Below, piece by piece: positions 2,792 through 8,055 of a stretch of 9,452 nt of DNA; within the stretch, counting starts at the first letter, position 1, and every line of letters begins with the position of its first letter. The DNA is from a virus. Lineage: Duplodnaviria > Heunggongvirae > Uroviricota > Caudoviricetes. The stretch lies in IMG/VR virus record IMGVR_UViG_2711768048_000004; one strand, 5' to 3'. The notes below the pieces were generated by a model that made no database searches, was not told where the DNA came from, and worked only from the letters and a program-made list of their open reading frames with translations. A program made the translations under genes and the position numbers.

Positions 2792-2959
2792 ATGCTGGCA
2801 ATATGCGGGAGATTTCCTAACCAAATGATTGAACAAATTAACATCGCTCTTGAGCAAAAAGGGTCCGGGAATTTCTCAGCCTGGGTCATTGAAGCCTGCC
2901 GTCGGAGGCTAACGTCAGAAAAGAGAGCATATACATCAATTAAAAGTGATGAAGAATGA
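2792..2959 (+). CDS. Small hypothetical protein, possibly ylcI-like (44-55 aa), with a ribbon-helix-helix-like motif
   Basis: Reading from the ATG at 2825 gives MIEQINIALEQKGSGNFSAWVIEACRRRLTSEKRAYTSIKSDEE, stop at 2957-2959; an in-frame ATG at 2792 is an alternative start. The RBS is weak and the ORF is below the 60 aa track cutoff. The assignment is from memory of a DLP12 small ORF in this position. Confidence 0.4.
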   Translation: MLAICGRFPNQMIEQINIALEQKGSGNFSAWVIEACRRRLTSEKRAYTSIKSDEE

Positions 2960-3123
2960 ACATCCCGCGTTCTTCCCTCCGAACAGGACGATATTGTAAA
3001 TTCACTTAATTACGAGGGCATTGCAGTAATTGAGTTGCAGTTTTACCACTTTCCTGACAGTGACAGACTGCGTGTTGGCTCTGTCACAGGTTAAGTAGTT
3101 TGAATGATTAGCAGTTATGGTGA

Positions 3124-5103: not shown

Positions 5104-5597
5104 TGTTGCCCCCACAAACAGACTTCACGCTCAATCTCACGACGAGTCATCAGGCCTTTCCATTGCTTACCGCCAGCGTATGTCCAGCGACGCAGCTGAT
5201 CACATGCGCCTTTGATATCGCCCTGGTTTATTTTGCGAAGAAGCGTCGATGTTCTAAAATTGCCAGCACCCACGTTGTAAACGAATGAGTAAAGAGCGCC
5301 GCGCGTTGTTTCCGGTATATCGACTTTGATATACGGGTTAATTTGTCTGGCGACAGTGGCAAGGTCTTTATTCAAGAGTGCTTTGCATTCTGCTTTGGTA
5401 TACGTTTTACCGAGCATGATGTCTTTTCCGGTGTGTCCGTGACATACAGTCCATACACCAACAATATCTTTGTATGGTATGTAGCTGACACCTTCCAGAC
5501 CATCGTTACCACTTGGGCCAGTGATTAACACTGATGCTATAGCAATTGCTCCGCCACCAATAGCAGCAGCAACGGCTTTTCGTAATGATGGAGGCAT
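5100..5597 (-). CDS. R: SAR endolysin (phage 21 R-type lysozyme with N-terminal signal-anchor-release domain)
   Basis: 165 aa with an N-terminal Gly/Ala-rich weakly hydrophobic segment ([20 protein letters not shown]) and the T4-lysozyme-like catalytic spacing E-x8-D-x5-T ([16 protein letters not shown]). The start overlaps the holin stop (TAATG). Confidence 0.9.
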
Positions 5598-5812
5598 TAT
5601 TCACCTCTCGCAGCCTTGCGCTTATCTTCTTTAATCTTGAAATAAAGGTTTGTCAGGTACGTCAGCAGGCCAAATACCAGGCTACCCAGCACACCTATTG
5701 CTGCCCACTGTGAGGGAGTGACTTTATCTAGCAGCTGTAAAAACCAGTACCCGGCACTACCTGCTGAGGTGCCATAGGCGACACCCGTTGTTAACTTATC
5801 CATGGATTTCAT
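5597..5812 (-). CDS. S: Pinholin (phage 21 S-type, class II holin) with a dual-start motif
   Basis: 71 aa beginning MKSMDK (Met1 and Met4 give antiholin and holin forms), with two TMDs including a Gly/Ala/Ser-rich first TMD. Strong RBS GAGGTGG upstream. Confidence 0.9.
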
Positions 5813-5923: not shown

Positions 5924-5957
5924 CAAAAAATGGAAAAACCCGCTCGACGGCGGGTTT
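5924..5957 (-). terminator. Strong rho-independent terminator on the minus strand, upstream of the holin
   Basis: Perfect 8-bp stem aaacccgc (5936-5943) / gcgggttt (5950-5957) with a 6-nt loop; the minus-strand transcript continues TTTTTCCATTTTTT. Confidence 0.5.
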
Positions 5958-6384
5958 AAGCTGTGTGACGAAGTAACCACTCTTAACAGCATAACCAATT
6001 TTTTACGTACGTAAACCACTAAATGATATTTGAGAGAATGCTACCGAGTATTGAAAACACCACTACAAATACATAAGCAAATCTCAACAAATAACCAAAA
6101 AATAATTTCCAGTGTTATTTTTAGCCGGTTTAAATTGAACCTTCAAATTATAGAGCACTTATAAATAACAGCCGTTAATATAAATTGGCTAATAGATTTA
6201 TTTTTATTCAGCCAAGAGCCATGAATAGGATTCGATAGAAAAAAGTTCAGATAAAAATAGAGATCTACTTCACAAATCAAACGAGAAACCAAAACTTACA
6301 TCTTGAAATAATCACATTGATTAGATGAATATTTATCGCGCAGTGACATCATTTTTTAATAATAGTTCAAAAAAAGGGCTCACG

Positions 6385-7482
6385 ATGAAAAAATTAACAG
6401 TGGCAATTTCTGCTGTAGCTGCATCAGTACTGATGGCGATGTCTGCTCAGGCAGCTGAAATTTATAATAAAGACAGTAACAAGCTGGATCTGTACGGGAA
6501 AGTTAATGCTAAGCACTACTTCTCCTCTAATGATGCAGATGATGGTGATACTACTTATGCCCGTCTTGGCTTCAAAGGTGAAACCCAAATCAACGATCAA
6601 CTGACTGGTTTCGGTCAGTGGGAATATGAATTCAAAGGCAACCGCGCTGAATCTCAAGGTTCCTCCAAAGATAAAACCCGTCTTGCCTTCGCTGGCCTGA
6701 AATTCGGTGACTACGGCTCCATCGATTACGGCCGTAACTACGGTGTAGCATACGACATCGGTGCGTGGACTGACGTCCTGCCAGAATTCGGTGGTGACAC
6801 TTGGACTCAAACCGACGTGTTCATGACTCAACGTGCAACTGGTGTTGCAACCTATCGTAACAACGACTTCTTTGGTCTGGTTGATGGTCTGAACTTTGCT
6901 GCTCAGTACCAAGGCAAAAACGATCGTAGCGATTTCGATAACTACACTGAAGGTAACGGTGATGGCTTCGGTTTCTCTGCTACCTATGAATACGAAGGAT
7001 TCGGTATCGGTGCAACTTATGCGAAATCTGATCGTACCGACACTCAAGTTAATGCAGGGAAAGTTCTTCCTGAAGTATTTGCTTCCGGTAAAAATGCAGA
7101 AGTTTGGGCCGCAGGTCTGAAATATGACGCTAACAACATTTACCTGGCCACTACCTATTCTGAAACCCAGAATATGACTGTATTTGCTGATCACTTCGTT
7201 GCTAATAAAGCCCAAAACTTCGAAGCTGTTGCACAATATCAGTTCGATTTCGGTCTGCGTCCGTCCGTTGCTTACCTGCAATCTAAAGGTAAGGATCTTG
7301 GAGTATGGGGCGATCAGGACTTAGTCAAATATGTTGATGTAGGTGCAACCTATTACTTCAACAAAAATATGTCTACTTTCGTTGATTACAAAATCAACCT
7401 GCTTGACAAAAATGACTTCACTAAAGCACTCGGTGTAAGCACTGATGACATCGTTGCTGTAGGTCTGGTTTACCAGTTCTAA
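6385..7482 (+). CDS. nmpC: OmpC-family general porin (NmpC / Lc / OmpD-like), phage-borne
   Basis: 365 aa with a classic Sec signal peptide ([23 protein letters not shown], cleavage after AQA), porin hallmarks ([15 protein letters not shown] start of mature protein, aromatic-rich beta strands, C-terminal ...VGLVYQF). It sits between Q and the holin on the opposite strand, as in DLP12 and PA-2. Confidence 0.9.
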
Positions 7483-7490
7483 TCTGATTA

Positions 7491-7532
7491 CGAAAAAGAT
7501 ATGTTGCGGGAGGCGTTGCCTCCCCAACATAT
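7491..7532 (-). terminator. Rho-independent terminator on the minus strand, about 140-180 nt downstream of Q (tR'-like candidate)
   Basis: Long stem atatgttgcgggaggc (7499-7514) / gcctccccaacatat (7518-7532) with a 3-nt loop and one bulge; on the minus strand it is followed by CTTTTTCG. Confidence 0.45.
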
Positions 7533-7620
7533 AAGTGGCTCCCTCAAGCCACTTCCTTTAGAAGCACAACCTTGCTTCTAACTATATAAACCTTCTGTTA
7601 TATATTACCCTTTATTTTTG

Positions 7621-7654
7621 GGGGCGTCTCAACGCCCCATTTTTAATAATTTTT
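7621..7654 (+). terminator. Rho-independent terminator on the plus strand, downstream of the porin gene
   Basis: Stem ggggcg (7621-7626) / cgcccc (7633-7638) with a 6-nt loop, followed by ATTTTTAATAATTTTT. Confidence 0.5.
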
Positions 7655-7671
7655 AGTAAACAATTGGCATA

Positions 7672-8055
7672 TTAATTAGAGTTATTAACAACGATATCCA
7701 TCTCTAACCGGATATCTAATGCCATTAACATCCCTTCAATTATGCCCTCAGCCTTCTGTAACCTTTTCCCGATATAACCATCAGAGCAGCAATGCTTACC
7801 TGCCAGTGACATGAATGTCATACCGACTACATAATAATCTACTAATAAATCGTGCAAATCGCTGTTGTTCTTTTTCAGACGGGCCATGCACCCGCAAATG
7901 ATCATCGCGTCATCGTCACAACATTGCGGGCGAGATTTTACTTTTGAAGTAATTAATCCCTTAAAACCGGCGGCAATGGACGACCAGGTCACATCTTCAT
8001 GATTATTAGCCGCCCACGCTCCCCAACGCTCAAGAACCATCTGAATATCACGCAT
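7672..8055 (-). CDS. quuD: Late-gene antiterminator Q (quuD-like)
   Basis: 127 aa from the ATG at 8055 (GGAG RBS 8 nt upstream), with a cysteine-rich putative zinc-binding core ([13 protein letters not shown] ... HCCSDGY) typical of Q proteins. It is positioned upstream of the lysis genes. Confidence 0.85.

Follow-up and report, generated by a model that had tools for sequence, protein, structure and literature searches.

The closest described counterpart of the locus analyzed here is IpeX, a 167-nt RNA of DLP12 and PA-2 that is transcribed from the porin promoter within the porin transcript and reported to be processed (Castillo-Keller, Vuong and Misra 2006). Genetic studies in the literature attribute to IpeX a trans effect that lowers OmpC and OmpF after transcription. 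It is called Hfq-independent, and reviews describe it as lacking complementarity to ompC or ompF. Other small RNAs derived from mRNA 3'UTRs in enterobacteria include CpxQ, DapZ and SroC. For late transcription in lambdoid phages, a useful reference is the PR' promoter of Stx phages, whose start has been mapped by dRNA-seq, 258 nt before the 3' end of tR'.

The gap between the porin and Q genes

The window, a stretch of 9,452 nucleotides from the tailed-phage record IMGVR_UViG_2711768048_000004, is a lambdoid late-control region. Its minus strand carries the genes for Q, a holin and a lysozyme, and a porin gene lies on the plus strand between Q and the holin. The Q antiterminator is of the QuuD type and has 127 aa (7672..8055, minus strand; PF06530, E 3.5e-53). 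The holin, of class II, is the first late gene downstream of PR'-tR' (5597..5812, minus strand; PF04971, E 2e-35) and is followed by the lysozyme (5597-5100, minus strand). The porin gene is lc/nmpC (6385..7482, plus strand; Pfam Porin_1, E 5.6e-157); its reading frame is open from 6325, and the start at 6385 was taken from the PA-2 annotation, in which the lc CDS at 1492-2589 corresponds to 6385-7482. The same layout is found in K-12 with nmpC and quuD. Between the convergent stop codons of the porin and Q genes lies a gap of 189 bp (7483-7671).

Some other features of the window were recorded along with these genes. A 69-aa reading frame on the minus strand (7321-7530) runs antisense to the 3' end of the porin gene and has its start codon inside hairpin H1, described below. 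The 1986 PA-2 record calls it ORF1, and in 434B it is annotated as a hypothetical pseudogene; it has no Pfam match and is probably not a gene. Elsewhere on the minus strand, positions 1099-1302 give a full-length match to Rfam IS009 (RF02111) with 110 bits against a gathering score of 117 (E 2.9e-25), and positions 2057-2119 give a weak, partial match to the Shigella sRNA CssrB (RF02799), with 27 bits against a gathering score of 76, that spans essentially the terminal hairpin alone.

All 189 bases of the gap are identical to the sequence downstream of lc in phage PA-2 (J02580.1), to the DLP12-derived part of phage 434B and to phage Kati, and the DLP12 locus of K-12 is also identical to it. 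The plus strand of the gap is therefore the published IpeX, and the element is already known. IpeX begins directly after the nmpC/lc stop codon (the porin gene ends at 7482), on the porin strand, and its length of about 167 nt brings it to the Rho-independent terminator of the porin gene at 7621-7644. Counted from the first base past the stop codon, the 167-nt RNA in the 3'UTR of the lc/nmpC mRNA occupies 7483..7649 on the plus strand; the end at 7649 is deduced from the published length and coincides with the end of the T-rich tail of the terminator. An earlier reading of the DNA from its sequence only had suggested a small RNA from the porin 3'UTR on this strand, which is right and had already been published as IpeX. 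The arrangement of quuD, gap and porin gene recurs in about 2,525 of 5,426 complete E. coli genomes. A search of the whole window against Rfam (E <= 1) returned no family in the gap, IpeX having no matching Rfam model, and ipeX is unannotated in the K-12 RefSeq record. E. coli SFAD3, A33 and A36 retain the porin gene and a 3'UTR resembling IpeX (about 88% identical), but no Q is annotated beside them, the next annotated gene being ybcM; the pair of porin and IpeX therefore appears to outlive the prophage.

The gap is densely structured, as the sequence-only reading had held, and the coordinates given there agree with ours within 2-3 nt. Secondary-structure prediction, which that reading had put forward as a check, yields the same five stem-loops on either strand, with stabilities beyond those of shuffled sequences. 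The plus strand folds at -64 kcal/mol, compared to -32.2 +/- 3.8 kcal/mol for 200 dinucleotide shuffles (z -8.3), and the minus strand at -65.5 kcal/mol, compared to -41.9 +/- 4.0 kcal/mol (z -5.9).

Hairpin H1 (7499..7532) forms on both strands, with 15 bp and one bulge, and is the first stem of IpeX on the plus strand. On the minus strand, it is followed by CUUUUUCG at 7498-7491 and corresponds to the hairpin with U-tract previously noticed at 7491-7532; together they make up a terminator-like signal for transcripts of the Q strand, which the terminator scan missed because the stem is bulged. The two further hairpins that the reading had noted at about 7535-7556 and 7561-7578 are present on the plus strand as H2 (7533..7554), with the stem AAGUGGCU/AGCCACUU and the 6-nt loop CCCUCA at 7541-7546, and H3 (7558..7581), with a 9-bp stem UAGAAGCA/UGCUUCUA. 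H4 (7583..7604, plus strand) is a weak hairpin made of AU pairs only, whose loop at 7590-7597 is an anti-Shine-Dalgarno sequence. H5 (7621..7638) pairs GGGGCGU with ACGCCCC and is followed on the plus strand by AUUUUUAAUAAUUUUU. Its 7-bp stem with 6 GC pairs and the AUUUUU that comes next have the make-up of an intrinsic terminator. Supported by both the terminator scan and the fold, H5 and its T-run (7621..7644) terminate the porin transcript and give IpeX its 3' end, at the place where the sequence-only reading had noted a plus-strand terminator (7621-7654). The H2 loop CCCUCA is the exact complement of UGAGGG, the ompF Shine-Dalgarno sequence, a motif that also occurs upstream in the ompC leader; the loop is fully unpaired in the ensemble and unchanged in 25 variants.

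These variants are 25 distinct homologues of the gap, aligned down to 88% identity, with a mean column identity of 97%. Variable columns are rarer in stems (6 of 92) than at unpaired positions (28 of 97; Fisher p = 5e-5). The covariation test on the 25 variants gave zero compensatory double changes because of the 97% mean identity, and it therefore cannot tell which strand's fold is selected. One-sided changes in stems split 3 : 2, three keeping a G.U pair on the plus strand and two only on the minus strand. Both one-sided changes in H3 leave G.U on the plus strand and A.C on the minus strand. The plus-strand T-run after H5 is kept in 24 of the 25 variants, and the minus-strand U-run after H1 comprises five U in 11 variants, four in 12 and three in 2, so that it is shortened in 14 of 25. 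The stem of H1 is unchanged in all 25 variants while this U-run decays, and H1 is therefore kept for something besides termination on the minus strand. As hairpins, H1, H2 and H3 are unchanged across the variants, and all of them lie outside the duplex predicted with ompC (see below).

The late promoter beyond the porin gene

The sequence-only reading was borne out for the plus strand, but its minus-strand half, a Q-dependent late promoter with a qut site and a terminated 6S-like leader (PR'-qut-tR'), is refuted. Its own remark that the gap holds no convincing -35/-10 pair agrees with the promoter scan, which finds no sigma-70-like site on either strand. Candidate pairs picked by eye on the minus strand of the gap (GAGACG-17-TAATAT, TTTACT..., TATAGT) were not convincing either and became moot after PR' was located.

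As a member of the Q21/Q933W family, and not of the phage-82 type, the Q protein of the window is a distant match to the Q21 structures 6P18 and 6JNX and shares 78-81% identity with its counterparts in Stx phages. We compared 30 loci downstream of Q from eight genera (E. coli, Shigella, Trabulsiella, Citrobacter, Pantoea, Xenorhabdus, Providencia and Morganella), and 27 of them contain exactly one copy of a conserved module. In order, the module consists of TTTACG-WW-CGTAAA(A), a 16-base spacer, a TATNNT -10 element, (T/A)TAAGAGTG, a short leader, and a GC hairpin with a T-run. At the Stx-phage locus compared, the start mapped by dRNA-seq falls on the A of TAAGAGTG, and the conserved module is PR' in Stx phages.

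A pattern search for this module found none in the gap within 3 mismatches; the family module occurs once, at 6015-5931. This late-promoter cassette of the window Q (5931..6015, minus strand) is identified by exact pattern match, by homology to the relatives and to the Stx2 phage PR', and by the terminator scan. It comprises, on the minus strand, the -35 hexamer within the 15-nt palindrome TTTACGTACGTAAAA at 6015-6001, matched with zero mismatch, the -10 element TATGCT at 5993-5988, and the tR' hairpin with its T-run at 5957-5936, called by the terminator scan. By homology, the late transcript would start at A5981. The cassette stands 170 nt upstream of the holin start, and its leader is about 50 nt long.

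Insertion of the porin gene between Q and PR' explains why the PR' of the window stands about 1.65 kb downstream of Q, on the far side of the porin gene. The position is constant among IMG/VR loci with enough sequence, since 74 of 75 carry a single module 1638-1658 nt past the Q stop codon. The module is also displaced past inserted genes in 1H12 (locus position ~4756), where blc and ybgA are inserted, in PhiR40_1 (~3463), in Citrobacter braakii (~5228) and in C. amalonaticus (~3009). Reading directly past the Q stop codon in 1H12 and PhiR40_1 reveals a Q-strand terminator directly after Q in both. Looking for PR' right after Q, where it is expected, would misplace the late promoter in many prophages of the PA-2/DLP12 type, which are present in about half of the complete E. 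coli genomes.

Several side observations concern these regions. Genes have been inserted between Q and the PR' module in several independent lineages. The cassette at 6015-5931 is unannotated in the records inspected, and publications on the DLP12 lysis cassette are silent about PR'. The PR' leader (5980-5964, minus strand) begins with a small hairpin, GUGG...UCAC in the window, whose pairs appear to change in step, with GUGG/CCAC in E. coli relatives and GUGA/UCAC in Xenorhabdus; this hairpin could be part of a pause or Q-loading signal. Directly past the Q stop codon, GTTTACTAAAAA at 7661-7650 (minus strand) resembles the PR' palindrome GTTTACGTACGTAAAAA minus its central 5 bases, with no -10 element after it. 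This could be a remnant of an original PR' close to Q that the porin insertion left behind, or a chance occurrence in AT-rich sequence. In the phage 1H12 locus, the sequence following Q (2950-3005) ends in the terminator AGCCAGCCTCCCCAAAGGCTGGTTTTTTTT, and both this terminator and the sequence preceding it are similar to the 3' portion of the Stx-phage StxS/tR', even though 1H12 has its PR' module elsewhere. The motif ATATAACAG, common to the window and 1H12, had been considered as a sigma-dependent pause element; this idea was dropped once the real module was found, and the motif is better seen as part of the anti-ompC box described in the next section.

Predicted pairing of IpeX with ompC and ompF

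Pairing was computed against the porin leaders of K-12. For ompC, the calculation suggests an antisense box in IpeX at 7579..7617 (plus strand) that would pair with positions -31..+10 through 32 bp in four segments. From the 3' side of the box, these are 7609-7617 with -31..-23 (9 bp), 7589-7603 with -21..-7 (15 bp with one G.U, including the Shine-Dalgarno GAGGG), 7585-7587 with -5..-3 (3 bp) and 7579-7583 with +6..+10 (5 bp). For ompF, positions 7592-7621 of IpeX (plus strand) are predicted to pair with -18..+9.

As backgrounds, we used 4,000 random 65-nt windows and a small set of 120 ORF-derived windows resembling translation-initiation regions (TIR-like). The 32-bp ompC duplex reaches -26.7 kcal/mol, a value as low being found in 0.03% of the 4,000 windows and in 0 of the 120 TIR-like ones (z -4.0). 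The ompF duplex, with -19.1 kcal/mol (1.9% of the 4,000 and 5% of the 120 as low), is marginally better than the cross-controls. Both ompA (-11.4 kcal/mol; 42% and 69% as low) and the phage porin's own lc leader (-14.4 kcal/mol; 16% and 32% as low) are at background level. With the same method, the validated pairs MicC-ompC and MicF-ompF give -22.8 and -27.4 kcal/mol, and the cross-controls -14 to -17 kcal/mol. Extended complementarity to the translation-initiation region beyond chance is found for ompC and is marginal for ompF. The gain on dimer formation by the full-length molecules is -18.4 kcal/mol for ompC, -14.3 for ompF, -9.3 for ompA and -4.8 for lc. The predicted ranking, ompC > ompF >> ompA and lc, agrees with the reported targets. 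Whole-molecule RNAduplex runs of IpeX against 140-170-nt targets produced unrealistically long hybrids (p 0.15, 0.04 and 0.47), and the windowed analyses were used instead.

The box holds two MicC-like elements, GUUAUAU at 7597-7603 and CCUUUAUU at 7609-7616, which MicC joins as GUUAUAU-G-CCUUUAUU. The AUUAC that separates the two seed halves in IpeX, together with the Cs that follow, corresponds to the stretch of MicF paired to the ompF Shine-Dalgarno sequence. In the predicted ensemble, the unpaired probability is 0.89 for the H4 loop, 0.68 for the linker and 0.05 for 7598-7604, which is sequestered in H4. The core of the box (7589-7612) is unchanged in 25 of 25 variants. On its minus strand, the gap resembles a porin leader (AAATAAAGGGTAATATATAACAGAAGGTTTAT), which suggests that the box originated by inverted duplication and may be an inverted copy of such a leader.

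From these calculations, we propose that direct antisense pairing, by way of the internal MicC/MicF-like box at 7579-7617, lets IpeX repress ompC and, to a lesser degree, ompF. The box would cover the Shine-Dalgarno sequence; we see the chances of this proposal as evenly balanced. The abstract of the 2006 IpeX study reportedly limits Hfq independence to ompC. The long ompC duplex would account for this, and the shorter ompF duplex for the reported Hfq dependence of ompF. The MicC-like antisense match of IpeX to ompC is apparently new here and unreported in the literature, and the original authors may hold data that exclude the box, such as a minimal active fragment without it.

As the identity and anatomy established above show, IpeX is transcribed from the porin promoter, folds into H1-H4 and stops at the H5 terminator (7621-7644), beside the convergent Q stop codon. 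In the proposed mechanism, the open anti-Shine-Dalgarno loop of the weak H4 would seed the pairing of 7579-7617 with the ompC leader (-31..+10), and the resulting duplex would cover the MicC site, the Shine-Dalgarno sequence and the first codons, so that translation would be blocked. A shorter duplex would form over the Shine-Dalgarno sequence and start codon of ompF. Since the phage porin's own leader is not complementary, a lysogen would swap the host porins for the phage porin. On the minus strand, the role of H1 and its U-run could at most be to end transcripts that leave Q without antitermination, so that these do not continue antisense through the porin gene. If the mechanism is true, IpeX is an ordinary antisense regulator and a phage tool to exchange host porins for its own. 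For about 20 years, IpeX has been cited as regulating porins by other means than base pairing, a claim that the predicted 32-bp ompC duplex makes directly testable.

Alternative explanations and comparison with known systems

Taken as a whole, the explanation that the gap is the porin 3'UTR, namely IpeX acting by antisense, with no late promoter on the minus strand, is likely in our view. The competing idea, in line with the literature, accepts IpeX as a real RNA but has it work by an indirect route, such as titration of a protein or an RNase, and takes the complementarity as fortuitous or a relic of an inverted porin leader; we find it doubtful, though it has arguments in its favor. Reviews report no base pairing as well as Hfq independence, and the invariance of H1-H3, which are outside the predicted duplex, implies some other role for these hairpins. 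Against it, the ompC duplex beats the validated MicC-ompC pair by the same method and is an extreme outlier relative to two backgrounds; moreover, the MicC seed recurs in the ompC match, the Shine-Dalgarno sequence lies within it, and the order of predicted targets fits the reported ones. The hairpins could also be merely crossed convergent terminators with RNA-stabilizing stems, insulating Q from the porin gene with no role in trans. H5 does end plus-strand transcripts and H1 minus-strand ones, and a Q-strand terminator precedes other genes inserted after Q as well. However, five hairpins within 160 nt at 97% identity exceed the needs of two terminators, and published genetics assign to the gap sequence a trans effect on OmpC and OmpF, which leaves pure insulation very unlikely.

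The other two possibilities involve the Q strand. A Q-dependent PR' with a qut site, whose short leader would stop at tR' (H1 and its U-run) and yield a 6S-like RNA of 100-150 nt, would be in keeping with the position of the gap directly downstream of Q, the site of PR' in lambda, 21, 82 and most relatives, and a minus-strand hairpin with five U is indeed present. Yet the promoter scan finds no site in the gap and the module, one per locus in relatives, is at 6015-5931 instead; the U-run after H1 is down to four or three U in most relatives, and no upstream promoter in the gap exists for which H1 could serve as tR'. We regard a late promoter in the gap as extremely improbable. Read-through of the Q strand in the lytic state could also make an RNA fully complementary to IpeX, which would neutralize IpeX or trigger RNase III cleavage of the porin mRNA, as a switch from lysogeny to lysis. 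The two transcription units do overlap by about 150 bp (7491-7644) because each terminator adjoins the stop codon of the other gene, but this arrangement may simply follow from the mode of porin insertion, and we consider such a switch improbable. The antisense reading of IpeX remains the preferred one. As the element is already catalogued, its rediscovery is not news in itself, and the part worth pursuing is the predicted MicC-like mechanism.

Compared to the IpeX of DLP12 and PA-2 published by Castillo-Keller, Vuong and Misra, the RNA of the window has the same sequence (100%), the same position after the lc/nmpC stop codon and the same strand, and its length fits. The two do not differ in sequence, and the present analysis contributes a predicted pairing with ompC and ompF that the secondary literature denies. 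The leaders of the lambda 6S RNA and StxS type do have a counterpart in the window, which holds a PR'-tR' cassette homologous to the PR' of Stx phages. However, this cassette is at 6015-5931 with a leader of about 50 nt, and the RNA of the gap is transcribed on the other strand, from the porin promoter.

The closest mechanistic parallels would be MicC, which acts on ompC, and MicF, which acts on ompF. Like these, IpeX is encoded beside a porin gene and is predicted to target the translation-initiation region of another porin. Its positions 7597-7603 and 7609-7616 repeat nucleotides 1-7 and 9-16 of MicC, and the predicted ompC site overlaps that of MicC; its AUUACC matches the part of MicF engaged with the ompF Shine-Dalgarno sequence. 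Contrary to both, IpeX is an mRNA 3'UTR and not a free-standing gene, and its putative seed is internal and partly in a weak hairpin instead of at the 5' end. Compared to MicC, the IpeX seed is split by AUUAC, and the predicted duplex reaches over the Shine-Dalgarno sequence. Like CpxQ, DapZ and SroC, IpeX has the same terminator as its parent mRNA, from which it is reportedly processed; it differs from them in being part of a phage-borne gene and in targeting the host paralogues of its own parent gene.
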